In this document: positions 48 through 12,739 of the stretch, one piece after another
How the letters are laid out: the number at the start of each line of letters is the position of its first letter
Numbering within the stretch: the stretch's first letter is position 1
Source: a virus
Taxonomy: Duplodnaviria > Heunggongvirae > Uroviricota > Caudoviricetes
Length of the DNA stretch: 14,070 bases
IMG/VR virus record: IMGVR_UViG_2648501165_000006
Reading direction: 5' to 3' (one strand)
The notes under the pieces: generated by a model
The model's input: the letters and a program-made list of their open reading frames with translations, nothing else
The model's database searches: none
Told to the model about the DNA's origin: nothing
Made by a program: the position numbers and the translations under genes

Positions 48-842
48 TTGGCATCAACGCAGAGTTCAAAAGAGTACAAAAATGATCGCAGCAAGGCGAT
101 GAATTCTGCTGTCAGCAATATGGCGCAGTGGTTCCGTTGGGATCCGTCTGCGGATGACCAGACGCCGGAAGCAGCTAGATTCCGTAATGACTATCAGACG
201 CTGTATGACATTAACTACCGCGTTGCTGGTGGTAACGCTGACGTAGCGAAGCAAATGACCAACCAGCAGATAGCCCGCACCTGGAGTATCAGCGAGGTTA
301 ACGGAGAAGCGCAGTTTATGAAATATGCACCGGAGGCGCTTTATCAATATGGGCCGTCAGGCTGGCAGGCGGCGCAGTGGAAAGCTGAAAAAGAACGGCT
401 GATGTACGGTGAGCGCAAAGAGATTATAACAACCAGCCCGACGTTGCTTGGGATCACGTCAGGTAATGCTCCTGTAGTTGAGACAAAAACCCCTGAGAGT
501 CGTATTAATGGAGAATTATTCATAACCCCTGACGTGTTAACACCCCGTAATGGTGATTACGCCATTATGGTAAGAACTAAGGATGAAAATGGCATCGATC
601 GGGTCCAGCCGTTTTATAACAAACATGGGCGTCCTATGCGTTGGGAACCATCACTAGAAGATTGGGAACCCTATAAGAAAATGCAGCAGGAACGGGAGCA
701 GTACGAGCAGGAAGAAATTATGCGTGGACAGGCTATACGAAACTTCAAAGACAAGCATCGCGCTCTGGATGAGCAGTATCAGCGCCTGCATAACGAACGT
801 ATGGACAAATTTAAAGATTACTTTTCGTGGGGATCTAAATAA
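48..842 (+). CDS. Phage virion or ejection-associated protein, function unknown; 5' end possibly beyond the window
   Basis: The reading frame is open back to position 3 with no in-frame stop, and the first in-frame start is TTG at 48. The stop TAA (840-842) overlaps the ATG of the next gene (842-844), indicating translational coupling. The C-terminus is charged and coiled-coil-like. Confidence 0.5.
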   Translation: MASTQSSKEYKNDRSKAMNSAVSNMAQWFRWDPSADDQTPEAARFRNDYQTLYDINYRVAGGNADVAKQMTNQQIARTWSISEVNGEAQFMKYAPEALYQYGPSGWQAAQWKAEKERLMYGERKEIITTSPTLLGITSGNAPVVETKTPESRINGELFITPDVLTPRNGDYAIMVRTKDENGIDRVQPFYNKHGRPMRWEPSLEDWEPYKKMQQEREQYEQEEIMRGQAIRNFKDKHRALDEQYQRLHNERMDKFKDYFSWGSK

Positions 843-3800
843 TGCCAGTTTATGCACAAGCTGAAGATCTTAATAACGGACTGATCCCGTCAGGTAACGT
901 TTTGCCGGAACAAACTGGGTTTGATGTTGCCCTTCCGGAAGGGGCTAATCCTGAGCCATTGCCACCTGAGCCTTCCGTATGGGGGGCTGCAATGCGACAG
1001 AACAATATTCTGTCTGGTTTTTTCCGCCCAGCCAGACAGTTTGAACCGGTCGAGGGTTATAACCCATATGCTGATAAAAATGAGTTGCACGGTTATGAAT
1101 ACTGGGGGGCGAAATTTGCAGATTCCCGATCGCCAGAGGAAACGGCGTGGATTAAGCAGCAGATAGATGATGAAAATGAAGACAGACGTTTATTGTCTGA
1201 TGCTGGCGTAGTTGGAACCCTTGCCAGTATTGCTGCGGGAATGGATCCGGTTACTGTTGCGTCAATGTTTATTCCCGGTGCTCAAGGAGGGGCACTGGCG
1301 CGTATTGGCTCACAGATTGCGATTGGTGCTGCCGGTACAGCATTAAGCGAGGTTGTACTGAATAATCAGCAAATAACACGCTCATGGGGTGAAAGTGCCG
1401 CTCACGTTGCAGCGGGTGCGATGATGAGCGGCGTGTTTGCCAGTGCTGGTGTTGCGCTTTCGCCATCCGTCCGGGCTGCAGCCACACGTGAGGTTGCTGA
1501 TGCTCTTGATAATATGAGCATTACATCAGCGACTGACAGGGCTGCCGCTTCGCTTTCCGATGGTGGTAGTGTTGGTGCTATGAAAATTGATACAGCGGCT
1601 CTGGATGATTTAACCCCTGTTTCCGGTGGGTGGGTTGGAAAGGCTGCATGGAAAGCAGGGAGCTATCTTACTCCTTTGACAAGGTTAATGGAGTCTCCGT
1701 CCAAGACGGTGCGAAAAACAGCGCTGGAGTTAGCCGAAAATAATTTCACCCTTAAAGGAAATGAAAGGGGGATTGAAACACCGGTAGCTGTAGAAACCCG
1801 TACACGTGGATGGCAGCGTGAAGAAGCTGCTGTTGTTGTCGGAAATAAACAGGCATACGCAAAGTATAAAGCTGATGGTGGTGACATGAGTTTTGATTCA
1901 TTTCGTCAGCAGGTTGGGAATGCTATGCGAAGCGGTGATGTGCATGCTAATCCTGTTGTTCAGGAAACGGCGCAGGCGATGCGAACTGTATTAAATCGGG
2001 TGAAAGTTGAAATGCAAAAGCTTGGTTTATTGCCGCCAGATGAAGAACTGAAAGCATTAGGCCAGGCAAGCTATTTCCCACGCATATATAAAGTTGGAAA
2101 AATAATCAGTGAACGCGATAAATTTCGACGTATTTTGGTTGACTGGTGGTCGAGAGGAAATAAAACACTGGATCCTGAGGATGCTGAAATTGCAGCGGAT
2201 ATCGTAATTAATAAAATTACTGGTGCTAAGGTTCCACAGGATTTTGTCAGCGTATTTTCTGTAAAAGCCGCAGGTAGTACGAAAGAAAGAACATTAAATG
2301 TTTCTGATAGTCTTATCAGGGATTATCTTGAAAGTGATGTGAATTACGTGCTGCAACGTCATATCCGTGAAGCGGCAGCAGAAATTGAGTTGACGAGAAC
2401 ATTTGGCAAACGAACTATGACTGAGCGTCTGCAATTAATTGAGGACGAATATGACAGTCTGTTACGGGAAGTGCCTGAAAAAATAAAGGCGAAATATGAC
2501 GAAAGTGTGGCAAATCTGAAAGCACGTTATGAGAGCAATGGTGAAGTTGTTCCTCAGGGTAAACTCGATTCATTAATGCGAAAGTACGAAAAGGAATTAC
2601 GGAAAGAACAGTCCAGACTTTCAAAATCAAGAGCAAATGATCTCAGAGACATAACAGCATTACGCGATCGTCTTGTTGGTACATATGGTATGCCTGATGA
2701 TCCGTCTTCGTTTTTTGTTCGTGCTGGCGCTTTTCTGCGGGATGTGAACTTCACGACCAAACTCGGTGGAATGACAGTATCAGCTATTCCAGATCTGGCC
2801 AGAGGGGTTATGGTTAATGGTTTCCGTAACACCATGAAAGGCTATGCTTCTCAGATATCCCAATCACCGGCATTTAAGGCCAGCAAAGAAGAGATGTTGA
2901 AGATGGGGATTGGATTGGAAGCTGTACTACATTCACGTTCTCGTGCAATTGGTGATCTTGTTGACAGTTCTTCCAGGACAACAGCAGTCGAAGCAGGAAT
3001 GGAGCGAATTACTGATGCCTTCGGCAAGCTGACACTCATGGATCGATTTAATGACATAAACAAATCCATGAACGGAATGCTCACGTCAGACGGTATTTTG
3101 TCTGGTGCGTTTTCTGCACGTCGCATGGCAAAACTCGGTATCAACGACAATATGGCTGCGCGTATTCGCAGTGAGTTCGAGAAACATGGTGAGGTAATTG
3201 ATGGATGGCACATTGGTAACTTTGATAAATGGGACGATCAGTACGTTGCCGGAGTATTCCAGTCAGCGGTTCTGAAAGACGTTAATAACACTATCATCAC
3301 CCCCGGTATTGGTGACACACCTTTATGGGCGAGTACTCCAATGGGGCGAACGATATTTCAGTTTAAATCATTCACAACGGCTTCATACAACCGTGCGCTA
3401 CTTGGTGGGTTACAGGAAGGAACTGCGCAATTTTATTATGGCACTGTATTTCAGATTGCTCTTGGCTCACTGGTCTATGCGCTAAAAGAAGCATCGAAAG
3501 GGAAAAATGTTGACTGGTCACCAGAGAAGCTGGTGCTTGAGGGTATAGATAGATCCGGTATTCTTGGGCCATTGATGGAATATAACAACATGGCTGAAAA
3601 GGCTACTGGTGGTGCTGTTGGGCTGGGGGCTTTATTTGGCACTGGCACACAGTCTAGGTATGCCAGTCGTGGATTCGTAGGATCTCTATTCGGACCGTCA
3701 TTTGGTCTTGCGGATAGCATCATTGATGTGACCGCAGGAGTGTTGAATGGTGATGCCGGTGATCGTATTGTGCATAATGTCCGAACCCTGATACCAGGCA

Positions 3801-3856
3801 ATAACCTGTTCTGGATTGCGCCACTAATAAACCAGGTGGATCCGGTGATGCGGTGA
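842..3856 (+). CDS. Large (1004 aa) phage internal virion / DNA-ejection (core) protein candidate
   Basis: Long ORF with a Gly/Ala-rich hydrophobic stretch (GAQGGALARIGSQIAIGAAGTALSEV...AAGAMMSGVFASAGVAL) and an extended charged coiled-coil region. It sits upstream of the immunity region and tailspike, as ejection proteins do in P22-like and epsilon15-like podoviruses. Function is inferred from size, composition and position only. Confidence 0.55.
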   Translation: MPVYAQAEDLNNGLIPSGNVLPEQTGFDVALPEGANPEPLPPEPSVWGAAMRQNNILSGFFRPARQFEPVEGYNPYADKNELHGYEYWGAKFADSRSPEETAWIKQQIDDENEDRRLLSDAGVVGTLASIAAGMDPVTVASMFIPGAQGGALARIGSQIAIGAAGTALSEVVLNNQQITRSWGESAAHVAAGAMMSGVFASAGVALSPSVRAAATREVADALDNMSITSATDRAAASLSDGGSVGAMKIDTAALDDLTPVSGGWVGKAAWKAGSYLTPLTRLMESPSKTVRKTALELAENNFTLKGNERGIETPVAVETRTRGWQREEAAVVVGNKQAYAKYKADGGDMSFDSFRQQVGNAMRSGDVHANPVVQETAQAMRTVLNRVKVEMQKLGLLPPDEELKALGQASYFPRIYKVGKIISERDKFRRILVDWWSRGNKTLDPEDAEIAADIVINKITGAKVPQDFVSVFSVKAAGSTKERTLNVSDSLIRDYLESDVNYVLQRHIREAAAEIELTRTFGKRTMTERLQLIEDEYDSLLREVPEKIKAKYDESVANLKARYESNGEVVPQGKLDSLMRKYEKELRKEQSRLSKSRANDLRDITALRDRLVGTYGMPDDPSSFFVRAGAFLRDVNFTTKLGGMTVSAIPDLARGVMVNGFRNTMKGYASQISQSPAFKASKEEMLKMGIGLEAVLHSRSRAIGDLVDSSSRTTAVEAGMERITDAFGKLTLMDRFNDINKSMNGMLTSDGILSGAFSARRMAKLGINDNMAARIRSEFEKHGEVIDGWHIGNFDKWDDQYVAGVFQSAVLKDVNNTIITPGIGDTPLWASTPMGRTIFQFKSFTTASYNRALLGGLQEGTAQFYYGTVFQIALGSLVYALKEASKGKNVDWSPEKLVLEGIDRSGILGPLMEYNNMAEKATGGAVGLGALFGTGTQSRYASRGFVGSLFGPSFGLADSIIDVTAGVLNGDAGDRIVHNVRTLIPGNNLFWIAPLINQVDPVMR

Positions 3857-3867
3857 GTTAAACGCCT

Positions 3868-4458
3868 TTAGCATGATTCAGGGGAAACCCCAATATTAAA
3901 TATGAGTGACTCTCCTGAATCAGCATAATAATGTAATATTATTGACTTACGTTGTTTTCTTGCTTCGTAGAATAAACGCTCTTGCGGCGATAATTTGTGA
4001 AAACTGCCGGATGCACAATATATGTTTTTTAACTTTTCGCTGGTTGCTTTTATTGTATCTTCTGAGATGTATTTTAGGTATTTATCCGTATAGATGTTGC
4101 TACTATAAGAAATTAATGTTTTGCTGTTGTTGTGATGTATTGTATTTTTATCGTTGAAGTCTGTATTTTTATTTACTGTCATTAGGTTTTTAATGATTAC
4201 ATGTAATGCAATAGTCTCCCCATCATCAATTCCATATTTGATGTCATAGTCAGTATATTTATTTGTTATACCGCTTCCTGATAGCGGCACTATGTACTCT
4301 GAGAAAAATGAGTTTGCCGCGTGACCATCAAGAGCAATAGCAGTTTTTTTGTGGTAAAAATAAAACAATATTGAGAGAGTCAAAATAATAGCGACGCCTA
4401 ATGCAACCTTTAATATAGATATGGTTTTCAAAATATCGCTCCTTGTTGTAACATACAT
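3868..4458 (-). CDS. Membrane-anchored hypothetical protein in an AT-rich moron (candidate superinfection-exclusion or defence effector)
   Basis: Visibly AT-rich ORF. It has one long N-terminal hydrophobic segment (ILKVALGVAIILTLSILFYFY) followed by a ~165-aa soluble domain with two Cys. The start is ambiguous: TTG at 4479 (ORF track), ATG at 4458, or TTG at 4431 preceded by AGGAG at 7-nt spacing. It lies immediately downstream of the RHH regulator gene on the same strand. Confidence 0.5.
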   Translation of the reverse strand: MYVTTRSDILKTISILKVALGVAIILTLSILFYFYHKKTAIALDGHAANSFFSEYIVPLSGSGITNKYTDYDIKYGIDDGETIALHVIIKNLMTVNKNTDFNDKNTIHHNNSKTLISYSSNIYTDKYLKYISEDTIKATSEKLKNIYCASGSFHKLSPQERLFYEARKQRKSIILHYYADSGESLIFNIGVSPESC

Positions 4459-4521
4459 CAGTAATGTGGCGTTTTTCAATTGTATTAAAGACGTGTAATA
4501 TGTACACGCCTTTTGTTCTTC

Positions 4522-4953
4522 CTATTCAGGTATTTCAATTCCAAAACCATCTGCATCCCATGAGTTTTCACAGATGATGTAACCTAGTTCATTGAGCTTA
4601 TTAAATGTTTTTTCAAAGATGATCTGGTAATCATTATCTGCAAGTGATTCCAGTTCAAGGTCATTAAGGTTTATATAAAAACTTGTATGTCCAAGTGTTA
4701 TTTTCTTATTGATTTCATTAAAAGTTCTTTTGAAAATAATATTTGATATTTCATGCCGTGCATTGTTTGCAATAATTTTTGCTTCATAAGCAGAAATTAC
4801 GTCATCTTCATGAATATCTTTCAGAAAGCTGGTGTCAAGACGTTGTACTATTTCAGCGTTCATTGAGCGCTTATTGGCTTTTGCAGAAATTTCTATTTTT
4901 TCTTTTACTTCAACGGGAAGTCTGATCCTTAGTTGTGGATCTTCTCTGCTCAT
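4522..4953 (-). CDS. Arc/Mnt-family ribbon-helix-helix transcriptional regulator with a ~90-aa C-terminal extension
   Basis: The N-terminus MSREDPQLRIRLPVEVKEKIEISAKANKRSMNAEIVQRL matches the Mnt/Arc RHH pattern (basic beta-strand, then helices, with the ...RSMN.E... motif). The likely start is ATG at 4953 with a GGTGA ribosome-binding site; the ORF-track start at 4983 is TTG. The gene is AT-rich. Confidence 0.6.
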   Translation of the reverse strand: MSREDPQLRIRLPVEVKEKIEISAKANKRSMNAEIVQRLDTSFLKDIHEDDVISAYEAKIIANNARHEISNIIFKRTFNEINKKITLGHTSFYINLNDLELESLADNDYQIIFEKTFNKLNELGYIICENSWDADGFGIEIPE

Positions 4954-4998
4954 GTTCTTCACCAAATATTGAGTTACTTGCAATGATTGAAGTATGCC

Positions 4999-5059
4999 TC
5001 ACCGTGTGCTTGACATCAATGACGCACGGTGTGACAATTGTTTTGCCCCACGGTGGGGC
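4999..5059. promoter_or_regulatory. Divergent immI-like control region: sigma70-like promoter (TTGACA 5010-5015, 17-nt spacer, GACAAT 5033-5038) overlapped by repeated CACCGTG / CACGGTG operator-like half-sites
   Basis: CACCGTG at 5000-5006 and its reverse complement CACGGTG at 5025-5031 flank the -35 element. A third copy sits inside the near-palindrome GCCCCACGGTGGGGC at 5045-5059, just upstream of the AAGGAG ribosome-binding site (5061-5066) of the Arc-like gene. Confidence 0.4.
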
Positions 5060-5073
5060 TAAGGAGATATGAA

Positions 5074-5241
5074 ATGCAAAAAGCAAAAGAGATGTGTCAA
5101 CGACGAGTTCGTTTTCCGGACGATGTGAAGTTAGCTATTGAAAGAAATGGCGAAAAAGAATGCCGAAAGTTCAATACAGAGATTATCTATCAGCTGAGGA
5201 AAGTGTATGGACTCACTGGTGAGAAGAATAGCGTGGCATAA
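5074..5241 (+). CDS. Arc-like small ribbon-helix-helix repressor (55 aa)
   Basis: ATG at 5074 is preceded by AAGGAG at 7-nt spacing. The product MQKAKEMCQRRVRFPDDVKLAIERNGEKECRKFNTEIIYQLRKVYG has the size and RHH pattern of phage P22 Arc. The ORF-track start at 5038 lacks a ribosome-binding site. Confidence 0.6.
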   Translation: MQKAKEMCQRRVRFPDDVKLAIERNGEKECRKFNTEIIYQLRKVYGLTGEKNSVA

Positions 5242-5313: not shown

Positions 5314-6140
5314 ATGACGAGTATAGCAACAGCGCTATCTACTATCAACGTGCCATTCCACGGCGCAGAACTTTATGTTGTCAATCACAACGGAGAACCG
5401 TACACCCCAATGAAACCTATCGTTGAAGGCATGGGTATGGATTGGGCTTCACAGTTTACGAAAATGAAGCAGCGGTTTAAAACCTGCATTGTGAAAATCA
5501 CAATGCAGCTTCCTGGGGATGAACAGCGCCGTGAGATTATTTGTTTGGCACTTCGCAAACTTGCTGGCTGGTTGCAAACCATCAGCCCTAACAAAGTCCG
5601 CCCTGAAATCCGCGACAAGGTAATCCAGTATCAGGAAGAGTGTGACGATGTTCTCTACGAGTACTGGACTAAAGGCCATGTGGTTAACCCACGCAAAGCT
5701 AAAAAGGCGTTGCCGGGTAAAATAACCACTGAACAGCAGGAAGCCATTAAACAACTCGTCATGAGTCGCGGTCAGTCTCTGCCAAAAGAAAAACAGGCTA
5801 AGGCGATGATCACCATGTGGTCGTCACTGAAATCTCATTTTGGCTGTTCGTACAAAGAAATTGATGAAGATCAATTCGCCGAAGCGTTGTCTCTTGTTGC
5901 TCGGGTTCCGCTTGAAGGGGAGCATCTCCCTGCTGGATCTGCATCAGAGAATGATGAAGTGGCAGTCAAGATGTTAGATGCGCTTCGTGAGGCAATTAAA
6001 ACACAGACAAAATGTTATGGTTATCCGCTGAAGCCCGGCTACCGCAGTCTGATTCATTCGCCGTCTGGTGTTCTCGGCCTGACGGAGAACNNNNNNNNNN
6101 CCACGCGGAGTACATCAACGACAAGGCAGGGTTCTTCTGA
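5314..6140 (+). CDS. Antirepressor (Ant-like N-terminal domain plus KilA-C-like C-terminal domain), interrupted by an assembly gap
   Basis: The N-terminus MTSIATALSTINVPFHGAELYVVNHNGEPYTPMKPIVEGMGMDWASQF is antirepressor-like. After the N run, the frame ...HAEYINDKAGFF-stop (ending at 6138-6140) matches the C-terminus of the minus-strand antirepressor 7124..7810. The ORF-track extension to 6315 is a frame artefact of the N10 placeholder. Confidence 0.6.
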
Positions 6141-6164
6141 CAGAACGGCGGCACAGGGATGTGC
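6028..6164 (+). repeat. Inverted repeat copy A (antirepressor C-terminal module plus ~25 bp of 3' UTR), gapped
   Basis: 6028-6090 and 6101-6164 are near-identical to the reverse complement of 7101..7359, for example CTGAAGCCCGGCTACCGCAG...GGCCTGACGGAGAAC and CACGCGGAGTACATCAACGACAAGGC. Confidence 0.8.
6091..6100. other. Assembly gap (10 N placeholder) inside a repeated antirepressor C-terminal module
   Basis: A literal run of ten n characters. By comparison with the paralogous copy at 7101..7359, the true missing length is probably ~120-130 bp. Confidence 0.95.
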
Positions 6165-6190
6165 AAAACGGAACTATCGTGACATGTCAC

Positions 6191-6215
6191 AGGCCGCTTT
6201 CGCGGCCTTGTTTTT
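6191..6215 (+). terminator. Rho-independent terminator downstream of the antirepressor gene
   Basis: Stem AGGCCGC (6191-6197), loop TTTC, stem GCGGCCT (6202-6208), then TGTTTTT. Confidence 0.6.
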
Positions 6216-6255
6216 AACGAATGCCACCGCCGCCCGGGCGGGAATCCGCAGACAC

Positions 6256-6277
6256 AAAAAAGCCCGCAACGCGGGCT
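6256..6277 (-). terminator. Rho-independent terminator immediately after the 181-aa minus-strand gene
   Basis: On the minus strand: stem AGCCCGC, loop GTT, stem GCGGGCT, followed by T6 (the plus-strand A-run at 6256-6261). The hairpin overlaps the stop codon at 6277-6279. Confidence 0.6.
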
Positions 6278-6822
6278 TATTCCTTCCATTTATCAGAAAA
6301 AAGCTCTTCTTCTAAAGGCATTGGTTCTGTTTTTGTTTTCTCAAAGAATTGATAACTGATAGTGATTGCTTCCTCTTTAAACTCTTCTTGCTCAGTTATG
6401 TTGTGGGCATCTGCGTCAACAAAAAACATAACCAGCGCATCACGATTGTGATTTACCGAATAAACTAAAAAGCAATCACTTGTTGGTATGCATTTTACTT
6501 GCACAGACGCTATATTTTTCCATGCATCCCAAGATGATTTTTTACCAGTGTGTTTTTTATCACTATCTTCTGGAATATAGTCTTGGTTATCGACATGAGT
6601 ATGCCTGACATTTAGTTTAAGCATTTCTGTCGGACGAGCAAATGCAGCATCTTTACCAAGAGATGGATGGTATCCCGTTTTCCAATACTGGGTAAAGGCA
6701 TCAGATACTTTCTTCAGCTCAAGATCAGATGCACAAAGGGCCGAGAAATTTTGCGTATGCAATACTCGACCCTTATATCTGACAATTTGATTTTTATCAT
6801 TCTGCGACGCAGACGAACTCAT
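6277..6822 (-). CDS. Hypothetical 181-aa protein, candidate toxin or abortive-infection effector (possible YafO-like motifs)
   Basis: ATG at 6822 is preceded by AAGGA. The motifs ...EMLKLNVRHTHV... and ...CFLVYSVNHNRDALVMFFVDA... resemble, from memory, conserved blocks of YafO-family mRNA-interferase toxins; this is unverified. The gene is flanked by its own terminator and lies between convergent antirepressor genes. Confidence 0.5.
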   Translation of the reverse strand: MSSSASQNDKNQIVRYKGRVLHTQNFSALCASDLELKKVSDAFTQYWKTGYHPSLGKDAAFARPTEMLKLNVRHTHVDNQDYIPEDSDKKHTGKKSSWDAWKNIASVQVKCIPTSDCFLVYSVNHNRDALVMFFVDADAHNITEQEEFKEEAITISYQFFEKTKTEPMPLEEELFSDKWKE

Positions 6823-6976
6823 AATTTTCCTTATTGTTACGAGAATCAAAGAAAGCTCGGGATACGCGACTTGCGTGATCTTTTGTCATAGTAACTTTTA
6901 CGTACTCTACGCTTCCATTGAAAGAACGTCTTGCGGCAGCTTGCGCTCTACGCATCTGCAATTTTTCGTTTCGCAT
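6797..6976 (-). CDS. Small 59-aa ORF upstream of and overlapping the 181-aa gene (candidate antitoxin or regulator)
   Basis: ATG at 6976 is preceded by GAGG at ~7-nt spacing. The N-terminus is Arg-rich (MRNEKLQMRRAQAAARR...). It overlaps the downstream gene start by 26 nt in a different frame. It is absent from the ORF track, which appears to omit ORFs of this size (shortest listed is 60 aa). Confidence 0.35.
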   Translation of the reverse strand: MRNEKLQMRRAQAAARRSFNGSVEYVKVTMTKDHASRVSRAFFDSRNNKENYEFVCVAE

Positions 6977-7100
6977 GACATTACCTCATATCTCATAAGT
7001 TCATTACACGGATTAATAAAAATGAAACCAATCCGTTTACCCTTGAGGTAATAGTACGCTATTCACCCACAGTCTGCAATCTGTACAGAATTATTTAAAG

Positions 7101-7359
7101 GCACATCCCTGTGCCGCCGCCCGTCAGAAGAACCCAGCCTTGTCGTTGATGTACTCCGCGTGAGTCTGGATATCACGCAGGCATTTGCTCACACCGACGA
7201 TGTAGCAGAACATGGTGGTCAGCTCCGCCGCCGCGCCCGATACATCGTGCCCGTCGTCCTGTAACTGGTTAAGCAGATTCATCAGCAGTGAGTTCTCCGT
7301 CAGGCCGAGAACACCAGACGGAGAATGAATCAGGCTGCGGTAGCCGGGCTTCAGTGGGG
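7101..7359 (-). repeat. Inverted repeat copy B (C-terminal module of the Bro-N antirepressor plus 3' UTR)
   Basis: The reverse complement matches copy A with a few mismatches. The repeat ends at GCACATCCCTGTGCCGCC (7101-7118). Confidence 0.8.
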
Positions 7360-7810
7360 CACTGTAGGTTTTGTTCTCTATCTTCATTGCCTGCATCACT
7401 GCTGATGCTGTGGCGTTGGCTACCTGGTCGGCAACCATCTTTATGCGTTCTTCCTGCGGGAGCGAGTTTTTAATGTAACTTCCGGTGCGGCGGATCTGAG
7501 GAAGAACCTCACCTGTAACCCATTTACGAAAGCGGTAGGGGATAGTGCCTGGTGTCACCGCATCGCGGCAGCGGAGGATCAGTGTGTAGAGGCCTGACTC
7601 GTTGATAATATTGGTTTCGCCTTGACGGCCTAAGTTAAATTTAGCCCTTTCATCATCATCAAGAGATTTTATTGACATAGTGGGGTTTGTCAGTTGAAGA
7701 GCTTTAATAACGTCTTTGGCAACAAACCAAGGATTTCCATCAATAACAATGGCTCGAATGGTTGCTTCTGATTCAAAATGAAAAACAGATGGGGTTACGT
7801 TAGCAGTCAT
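7124..7810 (-). CDS. Antirepressor with Bro-N-type N-terminal domain and KilA-C-like C-terminal domain
   Basis: From ATG at 7810 (ribosome-binding site AAGGTG) the N-terminus reads MTANVTPSVFHFESEATIRAIVIDGNPWFVAKDVIKALQL, the Bro-N signature. The C-terminal ~85 aa are near-identical to the gapped antirepressor at 5314..6140. The ORF-track extension to 7963 (MCKAHLFYGG...) is judged non-coding. Confidence 0.65.
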   Translation of the reverse strand: MTANVTPSVFHFESEATIRAIVIDGNPWFVAKDVIKALQLTNPTMSIKSLDDDERAKFNLGRQGETNIINESGLYTLILRCRDAVTPGTIPYRFRKWVTGEVLPQIRRTGSYIKNSLPQEERIKMVADQVANATASAVMQAMKIENKTYSAPLKPGYRSLIHSPSGVLGLTENSLLMNLLNQLQDDGHDVSGAAAELTTMFCYIVGVSKCLRDIQTHAEYINDKAGFF

Positions 7811-7963
7811 AGTGATCACCTTTGTAGTTAGGTTAATCACCACTACCGACGCCAATCGGTTGGTGGTGAACTGTGCAGGGTTGGCGTAACCGGCTACAAA
7901 GGACCCGGCGCACCTTTCGGTGCCCCCACACAGCCCACCATAGAATAGGTGCGCTTTACACAT

Positions 7964-7983
7964 AAAAAAAACCGCTTATGCGG
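7964..7983 (-). terminator. Weak terminator-like element (short GC stem followed by T8 on the minus strand)
   Basis: Plus strand reads AAAAAAAA then CCGC-TTAT-GCGG. On the minus strand the 4-bp GC stem is followed by eight T. The stem is short, so the call is weak. Confidence 0.25.
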
Positions 7984-8123
7984 CATATGTGCCTCTGTAG
8001 TAACTCGGGACGCCAATCCCGGCACTGGATTTTGCCAGTGCCCGATTACTATGGCACAAGAGGAGTGCGATGTAAATTTACCTCAAAGGTAAATATAAGC
8101 ACTCCACTTGGTAATTGCAAACC

Positions 8124-8381
8124 TTATCTGGTTTGCTTTCGTAATTGTTCGGCACAATAGTCGAGATGTGTTTGCAGATCCTGCATAGACATCTGTGAGC
8201 TGGTGACGTAGTTAATCAGTGCAGTCAGTTCGGCAAGTGGGCCATCGACATTAAATCCATCCTTATCGAGATCCCGGAGTAATTTCATCAAGTGCGATCC
8301 CTCCACCAGTGATCTGACGCCTCCCGGCGTGTGAATCCTTTCGGTAAATCCCTCTTCCAGTGGATAGTGATACTGCTGCAT
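8124..8381 (-). CDS. Stand-alone KilA-C-like (antirepressor C-terminal) domain protein, ~85 aa
   Basis: ATG at 8381 is preceded by GGAG. The sequence ...HTPGGVRSLVEGSHLMKLLRDLDKDGFNVDGPLAELTALINYVTSSQMSMQDLQTHLDY aligns by eye with the C-terminal modules of both antirepressors (...HSPSGVLGLTENSLLMNLLNQLQDDGHDVSGAAAELTTMFCYIVGVSKCLRDIQTHAEY). Confidence 0.55.
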   Translation of the reverse strand: MQQYHYPLEEGFTERIHTPGGVRSLVEGSHLMKLLRDLDKDGFNVDGPLAELTALINYVTSSQMSMQDLQTHLDYCAEQLRKQTR

Positions 8382-8576
8382 CTTATCTTCTCCATGCAAT
8401 AACTGTATAAATATACAGTAGCAAATAATTTGTTTGCTATCCAGCACGTTTTGCGAATCACCTGAAAGGTAATATCTGTTCGTATTTATGGGTTATCTAT
8501 CCATATATGGTTTTTAAGGTAATAGAATAACCGGATATGCGGCGCAACGGGTGCTGCGACTATCTGGAGATTTAAC

Positions 8577-10571
8577 ATGACGGTCTCAACCGAAGTTGAC
8601 CACAACGAATATACAGGTAACGGTGTTACAACTACGTTCCCTTATACCTTTAGGATTTTCCAGAAATCTGATCTGGTGGTGCAGGTGATTGACCTTGACG
8701 AGAATATCACTGTGCTGGCTCTTGATACTGATTACGCAGTCACTGGTGCGGGAGGCTATAGAGGCGGTAATATAATACTGTCGAAGGCATTGGCCAACGG
8801 TTATCAGATCTCTATATCACGAGAGCTCCCGGTTACTCAGGAAACAGATCTGCGTAATCAGGGTAAATTCTTTGCAGAGGTGCATGAGGATGCGTTTGAT
8901 AAGCTAACGATGCTGATTCAACAATGTCGTAGCTTGTTTCGTCTTGCACTTTGCAAGCCATCAAGTATTGCAAACTGGTACGACGCTTTAAATAACAGGA
9001 TTAGAAATCTTAAAGATCCAGAAAGCCCTCAGGATGCAGTAACTTTAAGTTATCTTGAAGGGTATATAGAAGGTGGTGATAGTACTTTGCGTCCAGATAT
9101 TACAAGAACTGGAGCTGTAGGGAATAATATACAGCAAGCCATAAACTTATCTATAGCCGGTCAAACTGTAATTACGATGAAAGATGATGAAATTGTATCT
9201 TCATTGTTAAATGAATATGGTGTTGAAATTGAGCAACGCAGGGGGCGTGTATTTAATACAGAAGGTGTTCAACTAACAACGTATTCTGACCCTCGTTCCC
9301 GTTTTGTAACTGGTGACCAATATCTTAATTATGTTATTAGCAAGATGATAAAAGCAGATGGCGTGGATAAATCACAGAAAACATATATTTTGTGGTCTGG
9401 TGACTCCACGATTGTTGGTGTTAACTCTGAATTATGGCCACCAGCAACTATTGCTGATTTTTATGCAAAGAGGTATGGAATTATTGATGTAAAAAATACA
9501 TCGTTAGGTCATTCAGGTAAAACTCTATACGAATGGGGTAATTGGTATATTGATCAGGAATGGTCTGTTTTTTCTGCTGCTGATTTGATTGTTTTACGAT
9601 GGGGAATTAACGATCCATATTATGGTTATACATTGGATCAAGTAAAAGACGCATTAGATAGAGGCCTTTCCAAGTTACGAAATAACAAATCAGTTTCCCA
9701 GCAATCAATTATTATCATGTCCCCAAACTCAACATCAGACACACCAAACGGACGTGATGAAAAATGGTATGAACAGTTAACAGCCGTACTTAGAGCCAAA
9801 GCAAAACAATATAAGTGTATGTTTTTTGATACTTACGGTATGTGGCAGGATTCGCGAGGATCTGCTGGTAACTGGCTTGATGACCCTTATGGCGATGGCA
9901 GGGGAATACACCCAAACTCAACATTTAGCGCACAGATACATAAATTATTATTTGAATATATTTATGGACCGTGTGCTGTTATAAATGGGAGTAGCAACCT
10001 TTTTTCTAACAATGGTTCTTCCATACAATTCATCAATAGCTCATATCCGCCAAATACTTTTCACATGGGGACTTCATGGTGGAGAACAAACCCTGATGAT
10101 GCTTCTTGGCCTCTTGATGGTGTTATTCAGGTTGATAGATTTGTTGACGGAATAGTAGTACAAAAAAATTATGGTTATTCTTCAGATAATGCTCGCGTTT
10201 GCTTAATGAGGATTGGAAGGATTAGTGAGAATACATGGAGTACATGGCGAGGTAATCAGTATGATATGAGTGGCATATTGCAAAATGGTTGGTCTGTAGG
10301 TGAGGCAAGAAGTGGAACATATCAGAAATCAGCCGAGGGCGTTGTTACTTTATCTGCTGTTTTAACAGGTGGAAATACATCTGTTGGCACGGTTATTATG
10401 GTATTGCCAGAAGGGTTTAGACCAAAGAATGATATTTCTTATATTCCATCAGGTACTGATTCATCGGTTGCCCTCATTAATATACTTTCAAACGGTAAAG
10501 TTACAATTCAGAGCTATCCGTCAGGAACTGTTCTTGTAATTAATACGACATTCCCTTCATTAGTTAATTAG
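8577..10571 (+). CDS. Tailspike / tail fibre protein with a conserved N-terminal particle-binding domain, a central SGNH/GDSL esterase module and a C-terminal beta-rich domain
   Basis: ATG at 8577 with a GGAG ribosome-binding site. The N-terminal ~120 aa (MTVSTEVDHNEYTGNGVTTTFPYTF...DLRNQGKFFAEVHEDAFDKLTMLIQQ) fit the podovirus tail-fibre adaptor pattern. SGNH blocks are present: GDS at codons 275-277 (nt 9399-9407), GIND (LRWGINDP), and DGRGIHP with the His at nt 9909-9911. The 3' two-thirds is visibly more AT-rich than the 5' end. Confidence 0.75.
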   Translation: MTVSTEVDHNEYTGNGVTTTFPYTFRIFQKSDLVVQVIDLDENITVLALDTDYAVTGAGGYRGGNIILSKALANGYQISISRELPVTQETDLRNQGKFFAEVHEDAFDKLTMLIQQCRSLFRLALCKPSSIANWYDALNNRIRNLKDPESPQDAVTLSYLEGYIEGGDSTLRPDITRTGAVGNNIQQAINLSIAGQTVITMKDDEIVSSLLNEYGVEIEQRRGRVFNTEGVQLTTYSDPRSRFVTGDQYLNYVISKMIKADGVDKSQKTYILWSGDSTIVGVNSELWPPATIADFYAKRYGIIDVKNTSLGHSGKTLYEWGNWYIDQEWSVFSAADLIVLRWGINDPYYGYTLDQVKDALDRGLSKLRNNKSVSQQSIIIMSPNSTSDTPNGRDEKWYEQLTAVLRAKAKQYKCMFFDTYGMWQDSRGSAGNWLDDPYGDGRGIHPNSTFSAQIHKLLFEYIYGPCAVINGSSNLFSNNGSSIQFINSSYPPNTFHMGTSWWRTNPDDASWPLDGVIQVDRFVDGIVVQKNYGYSSDNARVCLMRIGRISENTWSTWRGNQYDMSGILQNGWSVGEARSGTYQKSAEGVVTLSAVLTGGNTSVGTVIMVLPEGFRPKNDISYIPSGTDSSVALINILSNGKVTIQSYPSGTVLVINTTFPSLVN

Positions 10572-10578
10572 TTGTTTT

Positions 10579-10605
10579 TAGATTGCGACTAAAAATCGCA
10601 ATCTA
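10579..10605. repeat. Perfect 10-bp inverted repeat with 7-nt loop (TAGATTGCGA-CTAAAAA-TCGCAATCTA) immediately after the tailspike stop
   Basis: Read directly from the sequence. It is flanked by a T-run upstream and an A-run downstream, which is not the geometry of a plus-strand intrinsic terminator. Confidence 0.6.
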
Positions 10606-10722
10606 AAAAACACAAATGATGATTTTGTTGTTTACTTATAACATAATAATTCATATATGGTTTGGTTTTGATGGTGTTCTACCAGAAACTGGAGATTTGA
10701 TGAATGTTAAATGGTGGTTGAT

Positions 10723-11127
10723 ATGTCATTTCAAATAACTAATGATCATGTAAATCAGTATCTTACTGTTGGTTCTCTTGCTGCGGTTATTGGTGGGACT
10801 CCACCTGAAGTTGCTTTGGGCTCACTTGCCGGAGCTGTGATTTTTGTTACCTCTGCTATCGAGTATCCAATCCGTCGTCGTGTTCTTCTGTCAGTGCTCA
10901 GCTTTATTTGCGGCCTTCTCTTTTACAAACCAGCAGCATCAATTCTTATTGGCATAGCCAGCCTGATCCCTACCATCACACAGGACTCTTTTGAGAAAGG
11001 GATTGTTTTCTCTGCTGGCGCATTCGTGTCAGCAATTGTCGCTGTGCGTATTGGTATCTGGCTCTATCACCGTTCCGATAATCCACGCGAATTAATGCCG
11101 GGGAGAAAAGACGATGGTAACGCATGA
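10723..11127 (+). CDS. Holin-like membrane protein (about four predicted transmembrane segments)
   Basis: Hydrophobic segments (LTVGSLAAVIGG..., LAGAVIFVTSAI, VLLSVLSFICGLLFY, ILIGIASLIPTI, IVFSAGAFVSAIVAVRIGIWLY). It is the first gene of the lysis cassette. The start is either ATG at 10723 or at 10711. Confidence 0.5.
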   Translation: MSFQITNDHVNQYLTVGSLAAVIGGTPPEVALGSLAGAVIFVTSAIEYPIRRRVLLSVLSFICGLLFYKPAASILIGIASLIPTITQDSFEKGIVFSAGAFVSAIVAVRIGIWLYHRSDNPRELMPGRKDDGNA

Positions 11128-11422
11128 GCTTTTTTTACTTATCACCAATGCGGTTATTTGTACTGGCATAGCAATTCGCGTTGTCACTTTCCAGCGTAAC
11201 GGATCTCAACATCGAAGATGGGGTGGGTGGATTGCTTATTTCCTGATTGTTGCTGCTGCGAGTATTCCAGTTCGTGTCGTTTATGCAATCTGGTTACGCA
11301 CGCCAATGGCTGTGGATTTATCTGAGGTCATTATCAACGCTGTCATGCTTGCTGCGGTTCTTAAAACTCGCGGTAACGTCGTTCAGATTTTCAAAATAAC
11401 GAGGTCTAAATATGGAGATTAA
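11114..11422 (+). CDS. Second small membrane protein of the lysis cassette (holin or antiholin candidate)
   Basis: ATG at 11114 is preceded by GGGAGA. It overlaps the end of the upstream gene by 14 nt and the start of the endolysin gene by 11 nt. It has about three hydrophobic segments and a basic C-terminus. Confidence 0.5.
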
Positions 11423-12041
11423 ACAATTCCAGCGAGCTGCTGGTATTAGCGAGGCGCTGGCCGCTCGCTGGTTCTCGCATATAACTTCTGCGATGAAAGA
11501 GTTTGGTATCAGCAAACCAGAAGATCAGGCAATGTTTATTGCTCAGGTCGGGCATGAGTCTGGAGGCTTCACCCGGTTGCAGGAAAATTTCAACTACAGC
11601 GTAACCGGATTGGCTAACTTCGTTCAGGCTGGGCGTCTCACTCAGGGGCAGGCTAATGCACTTGGTCGCCGTGCTGGTGAACCACCATTGCCACTCGAGC
11701 GCCAGCGCGCGATCGCAAATCTGGTGTACAGCAAACGCATGGGGAACAATGCCCCTGGTGATGGCTGGAATTACCGTGGGCGCGGGCTTATCCAGATTAC
11801 CGGTTTGAATAACTATCGTGACTGTGGAAACGGTCTGAAAGTTGACCTGCTGGAGAATCCTGAACTGTTGGCGCAGGACGAATACGCGGCTCGTAGCGCG
11901 GCGTGGTTCTTCTCCAGCAAAGGTTGCATGAAGTATACCGGCGATATTGCACGTGTAACTCTGATTATCAATGGTGGCAGGAATGGCATCGACGACCGGC
12001 GCGCGCGGTACGTCACTGCCAGTAAGGTGCTGGCTGTATGA
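11412..12041 (+). CDS. Endolysin, glycoside hydrolase family 19 (chitinase-like lysozyme) type
   Basis: Motifs [12 protein letters not shown] and [15 protein letters not shown] are typical of GH19-type phage endolysins. From memory it closely resembles endolysins of epsilon15-like Salmonella phages such as SPN1S; this is unverified. GAGG ribosome-binding site, and the stop overlaps the Rz start (ATGA). Confidence 0.8.
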
Positions 12042-12520
12042 TCTGGGTATTCGTAAAAGCATACTGGAAACAGATGCTTATCGTGTTGATGCTTGCTGCT
12101 CTGTTCATCGTCGGAGTGGTTGCTTGGAATATACACGGCAGCCGCCAGTACGATGCCGGGTATGCGCAGGCGGAAGAAGACCGCAAAGACGAAGAAGACA
12201 AAGTTCGTCAGTACTACGAACAGGAGAAAGTGACCAATGAACGTGAAGCTCAGCAGAGGATCGACCAGGCGCGCAATGATGCTCTTGATGCTGCCGCTCG
12301 CGCTGGCCGGTTGCAGCAACAACTCTTTGCCATCCGTGAGCAGCTCAGGCAGTATAACGCCATTGTCGGCGCTGGGACGTCAGCCGCAGACACCGGAGTT
12401 TTGCTTGCCGACGTGCTCAGCAAATCTCTCGAGAGAAACAGACAACTGGCAGAGTATGCTGACCGGGCAGCCGAAGCCGGAAGAGTCTGCGAAAAACAGT
12501 ATGACACCCTGACCAGATAG
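12038..12520 (+). CDS. Rz: Rz-like inner-membrane spanin (i-spanin)
   Basis: N-terminal transmembrane segment ([18 protein letters not shown]) followed by a charged coiled-coil periplasmic domain. It lies directly after the endolysin gene and contains an embedded +1-frame lipoprotein gene. Confidence 0.75.
12237..12512 (+). CDS. Rz1: Rz1-like outer-membrane lipoprotein spanin (o-spanin), entirely embedded in Rz in the +1 frame
   Basis: AGGAG ribosome-binding site 9 nt upstream of ATG at 12237. The signal peptide has a basic n-region, a hydrophobic core and the lipobox LAGC. The mature part is Pro/Ser-rich, and the gene is nested in Rz as in lambdoid phages. Confidence 0.65.
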   Translation: MNVKLSRGSTRRAMMLLMLPLALAGCSNNSLPSVSSSGSITPLSALGRQPQTPEFCLPTCSANLSRETDNWQSMLTGQPKPEESAKNSMTP

Positions 12521-12645: not shown

Positions 12646-12675
12646 TTTTAATCCCTGCACTATGAATGAACAAAA

Positions 12676-12702
12676 CCCTCTGTTACTACAGAGGGTTTTT
12701 TA
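12676..12702 (+). terminator. Strong rho-independent terminator (likely the native convergent terminator between guaA and the yfgI-like gene)
   Basis: 8-bp stem CCCTCTGT (12676-12683), loop TACT, stem ACAGAGGG (12688-12695), then TTTTTTA. An A-run precedes it, so it may act in both directions. Confidence 0.8.
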
Positions 12703-12739
12703 TCTTCAAGAATCATAGGCTTGAAGTTACTAACATCGA

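Follow-up and report, generated by a model that had tools for sequence, protein, structure and literature searches.

Three groups of described antirepressor systems are close to the locus analysed here. In Salmonella phage SPC32H (Kim & Ryu 2013 and Kim et al. 2016, as cited in PMC9638917 and PMC7380047) the antirepressor Ant and its repressor Rep have been crystallised together (PDB 5D50/5D4Z): Ant forms a tetramer, which attaches to two dimers of the repressor and takes the repressor tetramer apart, according to PMC9638917, and SOS/LexA control of SPC32H-type antirepressors is summarised in PMC7380047. In P22, the immI region (mnt-arc-sar-ant) has the ejection genes on one side and the tailspike gene on the other. 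The third group comprises P1/P7 c4 and isrK-orf45-anrP of Gifsy-1, where a short upstream open reading frame (ORF) leads into the antirepressor gene (PMC4825925); fusion of the upstream ORF was noted in the same source for S. dysenteriae. The stretch examined here (IMG/VR record IMGVR_UViG_2648501165_000006, 14,070 nucleotides (nt), referred to below in its full length as the window) combines features of all three. It carries three genes with an Ant-like domain, and the near-identical 3' ends of two of them, which converge, form an inverted repeat of about 254 bp on either side of a 936-bp cargo segment (6165-7100).

The window is probably the immI-like anti-immunity region of an E. coli prophage of the TL-2011b/phiV10 kind (Uetakevirus), in which the inverted repeat is a by-product and the segment between its arms a moron slot. 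Under this explanation, the best found for the locus as a whole, three antirepressor genes would share one effector domain: a stand-alone copy behind a LexA box, a second copy fused to P22_AR_N in an mnt/arc/sar context and a third fused to Bro-N behind isrK and C4. Convergence of the two fused genes would bring together their near-identical 3' modules, with about 25 bp downstream of each, as the 254-bp inverted repeat, which would be a by-product of domain sharing and not a flip switch. Gene conversion between the arms, together with purifying selection on the protein, would keep the copies nearly identical. Related phages would exchange cargo through homology in the conserved flanks, with the inverted repeat dispensable.

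Synteny places the window in an epsilon15/phiV10-like podophage, between an ejection-protein gene (842-3856) and a tailspike gene (8577-10571), and its nearest phages are TL-2011b and the Uetakevirus phages ZX5 and phiV10. Position and gene order are those of P22 immI; unlike in P22, the C-terminal half of the window Ant is SPC32H-Ant-like and not P22_AR_C. The likeness to SPC32H is closest in the stand-alone 85-amino-acid (aa) protein, a near-identical ortholog of the crystallised Ant, and extends to the LexA box upstream of its gene and to a Rep homolog in TL-2011b, all of these being epsilon15-like podophages. The window differs from SPC32H in adding two diverged Ant-fold copies (40%) on P22_AR_N and Bro-N, under other control elements; no description of such fused copies for SPC32H was found in the accessible secondary literature. 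As in P1/P7 and Gifsy-1, isrK and C4 are located directly upstream of the Bro-N gene. Unlike in Gifsy-1, the upstream ORF is fused in frame (the ORF from 7963 runs into the Bro-N gene and does not overlap it by AUGA) and the C-terminal module is a different one. TL-2011b has the same three genes, the inverted repeat and the YafO cargo, and differs by two extra insertions: a 192-bp ORF encoding a transmembrane (TM) protein and, ahead of the stand-alone ant, a segment of 1,089 bp. ZX5 and phiV10 differ in having the right arm only. No mention of the repeat or of the shared module was found in the accessible literature on these three phages.

The C-terminal module shared by the three proteins has no Pfam family, and NCBIfam gave nothing useful for the key proteins; PHROG 450/15539 is common to all three. 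In the comparison with PDB, residues 147-223 of the right antirepressor matched 5D50_E ("Anti-repressor protein") with E=1.9e-13 over 77 residues, and the stand-alone protein matched the same chain over nearly its whole length (Table 1). The module is, by its sequence, a diverged copy of the SPC32H Ant fold (PDB 5D50), so that a solved structure and a mechanism can be assigned to a C-terminal module previously unnamed. The preliminary description of the window had proposed one C-terminal module common to two antirepressors whose N-terminal domains are unrelated, and a third copy that stands alone. Both proposals hold: Pfam assigns P22_AR_N to one fused protein and Bro-N to the other, P22_AR_N being the only domain matched in the reconstructed 314-aa Ant (P22_AR_C was not), and the stand-alone copy and the fused module are 40% identical at the protein level over 78 aa (E=1e-15). 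At the DNA level these two are 46% identical, with 28% identity at third codon positions in a codon-register comparison; with third positions saturated, the third copy is a paralogue of long standing and no substrate for recombination.

Table 1. Features of the anti-immunity region, in window coordinates.
Feature	Position	Strand	Evidence and remarks
Mnt/Arc-family ribbon-helix-helix repressor, in the mnt position of P22 immI	4522..4983	-	Pfam Arc PF03869, E=1.2e-14
Small Arc-like repressor gene, directly upstream of ant	5038..5241	+	PHROG 228 "Arc-like repressor", E=2.3e-5
sar antisense RNA, abutting the ant start codon	5245..5312	-	Rfam RF00262, full-length model; 45.2 bits, only marginally over the gathering score of 43
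Left antirepressor	5314..6140	+	P22_AR_N (Pfam E=5.7e-45) and SPC32H-Ant-like C-terminal module; interrupted by the N-run; true length 314 aa
Left arm of the inverted repeat	6028..6164	+	125 nt physically in the window, plus the gap
10-N assembly gap in the left arm	6091..6100		Stands for 128 nt, according to contig L021
Conserved left slot boundary	6165..6252		96-99% in all cargo types; terminator-like hairpin of ant at 6191-6208, plus strand
Conserved cargo-unit terminator	6253..6279	-	Stem 6278-6260, terminator scan
YafO-like toxin, cargo gene 1	6277..6822	-	181 aa from the RefSeq-equivalent start; Pfam YafO_toxin PF13957
Putative antitoxin, 59-aa ORF, cargo gene 2	6797..6976	-	PHROG 6685 (unknown function), E=3e-45
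Conserved right slot boundary, adjoining the right arm	7037..7100		Kept in 5/8 alternative cargo types compared
Right arm of the inverted repeat	7101..7354	-	254 nt; six single-nucleotide polymorphisms (SNPs; 7196-7276) matching the left-arm state
Right antirepressor	7124..7810	-	Bro-N (Pfam E=7.8e-20) and SPC32H-Ant-like module, 228 aa
C4 antisense RNA (P1/P7 immI type), leader of the Bro-N gene	7859..7945	-	Rfam RF01695, 79.5 bits against 45
Hfq-binding RNA isrK, upstream of both C4 and the Bro-N gene	7965..8041	-	Rfam RF01394, 74.2 bits against 50
Stand-alone antirepressor	8124..8381	-	SPC32H Ant ortholog, 85 aa; 5D50_E, E=1.6e-47, residues 2-84
Perfect LexA box CTGTATAAATATACAG	8403..8418		22 nt upstream of the stand-alone ant ATG (8381)

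A search of 5,426 closed E. coli genomes found the module in 532 of them, with roughly 50 two-arm and roughly 480 single-arm loci. With arm DNA 94-97% identical, it is joined to P22_AR_N, Bro-N, AntA (in L093, Pfam AntA E=8e-28) or ORF6N (in L102) N-terminal domains and also stands alone, which bears out the module shuffling that had been suggested for this locus. Conversely, P22_AR_N genes have other C-termini in 58/80 IMG/VR loci. Five loci (L011, L024-L027) have the Ant-module gene and the stand-alone copy without Bro-N, and the stand-alone ant was present in all related loci long enough to reveal it.

The window excludes the immunity region. In the related phage TL-2011b, gp10 matched chain 5D50_A ("Repressor") with E=6.6e-42 and is a full-length Rep homolog, so a cognate Rep target is present in this phage lineage. 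The fused proteins may bind Rep as well. The Bro-N gene of ZX5 (ORF4) falls in a 94.9%-identical DNA match to window positions 7099-8600, and overexpression of ZX5 ORF4 was pro-lytic, with a prophage titre about 1,000-fold lower (PMC9782041). In the deposited genome of phiV10 (L086 3560-4239), a frameshift or deletion within the shared module divides the Bro-N antirepressor into p23 and p22; this copy may be inactive, or the record may hold a sequencing error.

Each of the three module-bearing genes is located behind a different known control element (Table 1). The repressor at 4522-4983 has a homolog in L001 that RefSeq names "Arc family DNA-binding protein", and the counterpart of 5038-5241 in TL-2011b is gp41, annotated "Arc-like repressor". 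The LexA box is the sole zero-mismatch LexA site in the window and overlaps the presumed promoter of the stand-alone ant; the same search of the window found no LexA box upstream of either fused antirepressor gene. The three small RNAs (sar, C4 and isrK), all above their Rfam gathering thresholds, were observed at the 5' ends of two antirepressor genes of one prophage.

We infer that the three elements could serve as three separate inputs to one Rep, and that all three proteins may bind the same Rep, each answering a different signal. A further step is tentative and, on balance, doubtful: that the SOS/LexA, Mnt/Arc/sar and isrK/C4 inputs converge on one repressor through the paralogous Ant copies, with conversion keeping the fused copies matched to Rep. 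If so, the repeat would be kept because concerted evolution preserves specificity, with larger rearrangements (the type-B loci and flips described below) as occasional events. The arrangement suggests that some temperate phages may wire several differently regulated antirepressors to one repressor, which, if true, bears on how induction is coordinated in polylysogens.

The inverted repeat was examined by self-alignment of the window. As had been reported, the 3' ends of the two antirepressor genes are near-identical in inverse orientation and the identity continues for about 25 bp past each stop codon. Positions 6028-6090 pair with 7354-7292 (61/63 identical), 6102-6141 with 7162-7123 (39/40, spanning the TGA stops at 6138-6140 and 7126-7124) and 6143-6164 with 7122-7101 (20/22 with one 1-nt indel, these being the bases past the stops). 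Overall identity of the arms was 96-98% (6028-6090/6102-6164 against 7354-7101), and the same arms were recovered by repeat finding in the window. The left arm had been called gapped; the gap is present, but it is a 10-N assembly run and not natural sequence. This N-run throws the ORF finder out of frame in the plus-strand ant, with an ORF call that reaches 6315, so that the gene appears frameshifted.

The missing bases were supplied by L021, an N-free IMG/VR contig whose identity to the window is 100% on the left side of the gap and 99.7% on the right side (seven differences over about 12.1 kb) and that has exactly 128 nt between the two sides. Filling the gap with these 128 nt gives an in-frame Ant with the C-terminal end HAEYINDKAGFF before its stop codon. 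The reconstructed left arm matches the right arm of the window at 227/232 positions and includes a 137-nt identical run, long enough to break a short-read assembly; the repeat is a predictable break site for such assemblies.

The position of the gap, exactly within the left arm, is what would be expected if the repeat or the junction were a chimeric join or a collapsed repeat and the arrangement not genuine. The nearest closed relative also changes at the gap (L002, 99.5% to the left; L001, 99.8% to the right), the right arm has left-arm bases precisely where it is homologous to the gap, and several copies of the module occur in many E. coli genomes (median 2 places per genome). However, L021 joins the same left and right sequences without any N, and the 128-nt fill restores the reading frame exactly. 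Furthermore, the region is colinear with the window in E. coli UTAK-1 (L001) and E. coli OkiPb01683 (L002), both closed chromosomes, and in phage TL-2011b (L003), all with an uninterrupted repeat of 253-258 bp that is 94-96% identical (blastn E about 1e-111 to 1e-119). The left junction of this arrangement, called type A here (P22-type Ant on the left, Bro-N antirepressor on the right, cargo between the arms), is present in 36 closed genomes. The repeat and the scaffold join are real, given the L021 join, the closed genomes and the restored frame. An assembly artefact, which the preliminary description had named as the outcome that would undo its claim, is extremely improbable and, for the architecture, largely refuted.

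For the scoring of polymorphisms, 36 arms from about 18 related loci were compared. Identity was nearly equal in all comparisons: 95.9% between left arms, 95.7% between right arms, 95.1% between left and right arms within a genome and 94.7% between left and right arms of different genomes. Among the polymorphic sites, 23 were common to left and right arms, 9 were left-only and 13 right-only, and there were 0 fixed differences; two variants of the post-stop tail were found, each in both arm positions. Because of the 23 shared polymorphisms and the lack of fixed differences, the arms are taken to recombine with each other, in the form of gene conversion, and the recombination between the repeats that had been anticipated for this locus thus finds support. 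Variation in the coding part is mostly synonymous (33/40 variable columns at third codon positions; only five protein variants among the 36 arms), which indicates that both copies are under purifying selection.

A possible recent event was found in the window itself. Six of its differences from L021 are located within 81 bp of the right arm (7196-7276) and are the only differences between the two in about 6 kb right of the gap. At all six sites the window has the left-arm base, and the right arm of L021 has the state of L001. This tract is either a fresh left-to-right conversion or a collapse artefact; a true 137-nt identical run would by itself account for the assembly gap, which slightly favours conversion. 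The locus offers a clean natural example of concerted evolution of inverted coding repeats in a phage, together with a moron slot of fixed boundaries that carries toxin and membrane cargos.

The preliminary description had also suggested that the repeats could mediate inversion of the cassette. In its strong form, the 254-bp arms would drive frequent RecA-dependent or recombinase-driven inversion of 6165-7100, and the two orientations would alter expression of the toxin cassette or exchange the 3' ends of the antirepressors. The repeat has sufficient length for RecA, with identical left-right runs of 39-158 nt in relatives and 137 nt in the reconstructed window, and inversion would be almost silent for both antirepressors, since the module proteins are identical. 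A survey of the 5,426 closed E. coli genomes was carried out with two queries: a synthetic flipped cassette and a cargo-independent inverted junction (the left boundary, reverse-complemented and joined to the right arm).

With the flipped-cassette query, no colinear match was found in these genomes. Four matches of about 80% were considered as inversions and rejected, being non-colinear joins from type-B loci. The type-B loci (L004, L005, L095-L098, L100, L101) were observed to have the P22-type ant cut to an inverted 5' remnant, and their left position is occupied by a second Bro-N-module gene on the plus strand with its own isrK/C4 leader; their inverted repeat is extended to 432-509 nt plus about 300 nt.

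Every sequence-checked type-A locus, among the IMG/VR loci with two arms and including 9 closed genomes, has one cargo orientation. The YafO, DUF2335, DUF4760 and 210-aa cargo types recur always in the same orientation, and no opposite-strand cargo pairs were found among the loci once locus orientation was accounted for. The type-A left junction of the 36 closed genomes was scored at >=80% coverage, and the matches sampled at ranks 1, 17 and 33 were native and full-length. In comparison, the inverted-junction query matched 12/5,426 genomes, none of which has an intact P22-type Ant on the left. Ten of the 12 were inspected directly; for UTME-9 and UTME-10, the feature patterns in the match tables are identical to those of UTME-12 and UTME-14. 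Ten of the 12 are type B, with the cargo in its usual orientation relative to the ejection-to-tail backbone.

The cargo unit is flipped relative to the backbone in two closed genomes, CUVET21-H2 (L099) and MS 196-1 (L102), which counts in favour of an invertible cassette. The cargo protein of L099 is the one found on the opposite strand in L090 and L091, and a 2,327-bp block of L099 that extends from the arm across cargo, Bro-N gene and leader is the exact inverse of L091 (98.4%). The flipped block of L102 likewise contains the whole Bro-N gene and its leader (98.6% over 2,251 nt against L101). Blocks that take in the Bro-N gene and the sequence upstream of it point to an outer repeat; the repeats of these two genomes run through entire Bro-N genes, and L099 has an outer repeat (509 nt with 99% identity and 297 nt with 90%) that is missing from type-A loci; the flips in L099 and L102 are best explained by crossovers in this longer outer repeat. 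The flipped regions were located at 3021-5344 in L099 and 2444-6095 in L102, and L102 also has two tandem cargo units.

No site-specific recombinase or invertase family was found among the window proteins scanned with Pfam, a set that leaves out the lysis-region and short ORFs. Rapid switching is excluded in the type-A architecture, and rare or transient inversion is possible; frequent inversion of 6165-7100 by the arms is thus very unlikely, as is a role for two orientations in toxin expression or in exchange of the 3' ends.

The inter-arm segment, whose boundaries are conserved, is a moron slot. Cargo was compared in 20 loci with both arms and then in six further closed genomes, and at least 11 distinct cargos were found at the same place between the boundary elements, which confirms that the hotspot of moron exchange predicted from the window alone does vary among related prophages. 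Among the cargo types are the YafO pair with or without the 192-bp TM insert, DUF4760, a pair with DUF2335, another YafO-like pair and several unknowns. Every cargo ORF lies on the minus strand, in the orientation of the Bro-N gene, and the GC content of the cargo is 36-40%, against 55-58% in the arms. The 192-bp insertion polymorphism is located at 6252/6253, and its product is a 53-aa signal-peptide-like "transmembrane anchored protein" (WP_000708858). The window, L001 and L021 lack the insertion and most other loci have it, whatever the cargo type.

The cargo of the window had been described as a toxin-antitoxin-like cassette. The toxin part of this claim stands, although the YafO_toxin match is marginal (26.2 bits where the cut-off is 25, E=9e-6): cargo gene 1 also matches PHROG 1651 with E=5e-51 and bears the RefSeq name "type II toxin-antitoxin system YafO family toxin", and it gave no NCBIfam match. 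The antitoxin part does not stand in the same way. The 59-aa ORF overlaps the start of the YafO-like toxin by 26 nt and is annotated as a coding sequence only in TL-2011b (gp45), and no antitoxin family was matched by it in Pfam, NCBIfam or PHROG. The toxin-antitoxin-like nature of the cassette is plausible and no more than half demonstrated.

It was considered whether the arms themselves drive the turnover of cargo, through double crossovers within both module copies, the repeat thereby creating the hotspot. The arms are the best-conserved sequence flanking a highly variable segment, and both the window and L021 change their nearest closed-genome relative within an arm. In type B, the junction of the inverted Bro-N gene and the left boundary falls inside an arm (L004rc 4340-4402), and four different N-domains are joined to the module with breakpoints at its 5' edge. 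Nevertheless, cargo is replaced at the boundary elements (6165-6252, 6253-6279 and about 7037-7100) rather than at the arm edges: the breakpoints, at 6252/6279 and about 7037, lie outside the arms by 88-115 bp and 64 bp.

The phages with one arm point the same way. ZX5, joined over the origin of its record, has a single module-bearing gene and yet possesses a homolog of the left boundary as well as the TM ORF and a DUF2335 cargo, so the slot does not need the inverted repeat. In phiV10 the right arm directly abuts the left-boundary homolog and the slot is empty. With neither phage having the left arm, their slots indicate that the slot is older than, and independent of, the second arm. Between the leader of the Bro-N gene and the stand-alone ant there is a second variable slot, and it has no flanking repeat at all. 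Turnover driven by the arms is therefore unlikely, and the repeat as the creator of the hotspot is wrong, or at least unsupported; cargo exchange would proceed by double crossover in the conserved flanks.

The second slot was located between isrK and the stand-alone ant (about 8042-8123 in the window, where it is nearly empty). It holds a 1,089-bp insert in TL-2011b (L003 4669-5757), a 729-nt ORF in L090 (4446-5174) and, in L092 (4617-5556) and L098, a different YafO-family toxin pair that is on the plus strand in backbone orientation.

Five points weigh against the explanation preferred here, that of an immI-like region with three Ant-fold genes, a by-product repeat and a moron slot. Identity between the fused module and the characterised Ant is no higher than 40%. 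The loci behind the shared polymorphisms, about 18, are not phylogenetically independent. The six-SNP tract coincides with the stretch homologous to the gap and could be a collapsed-repeat artefact. The flips in L099 and L102 show that repeats of this family are able to mediate inversion. Finally, the cargo may rely on read-through that starts from the Bro-N gene: a sigma-70 scan gave no passing promoter in 6977-7100, where a weak TTGCAG-17-TACTAT was seen by eye in the right boundary.

Morons are autonomous promoter-gene-terminator insertions in temperate phages. The cargo resembles them in being AT-rich, equipped with terminators, variable between near-identical phages and often made up of toxin or membrane proteins; it differs in that the slot has fixed conserved boundaries and a fixed orientation and is located between the ends of two convergent paralogous genes. 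Invertible segments (Mu G and P1 C with Gin/Cin, and shufflons) are likewise bracketed by inverted repeats. Unlike short recombination sites, the repeats of the window are coding 3' ends of about 254 bp, and the window differs further in having no invertase among its scanned proteins and one orientation in type A. The shuffling of Bro-N/KilA-N regulators, as set out by Iyer, Koonin & Aravind (2002, PMC88810), is similar in that one C-terminal module is combined with unrelated N-domains, and differs in that the C-terminal module here has no Pfam family and is tied to a structurally solved antirepressor. All components of the locus belong to families already known, and public genomes contain the architecture, uncommented. 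The new elements are the assignment of the module to SPC32H Ant, the arrangement in three contexts and the evidence for concerted evolution.

Further genes of the window were annotated as follows. The gene at 3868-4479 (minus strand) encodes a predicted membrane protein of 203 aa (PHROG 8033, unknown function) in the sieA position of P22 immI and, by this analogy of position, may be a superinfection-exclusion gene. The tailspike has a T7-tail N-terminus and an SGNH hydrolase domain. When it was compared with L002 and L088-L102, the N-terminus was conserved to about 8986 and the C-terminal receptor-binding part was swapped: SGNH/GDSL hydrolase in the window; endosialidase, GH28-related or other tail-fibre domains in the relatives. 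In the lysis region, two holin-like genes (10711-11422) are located before an embedded Rz/Rz1-type spanin pair (12038-12520 and 12237-12512), which follows the endolysin gene (11412-12041). Strong terminator-like hairpins were found after the tailspike gene (10567-10617) and after the lysis module (12663-12708).

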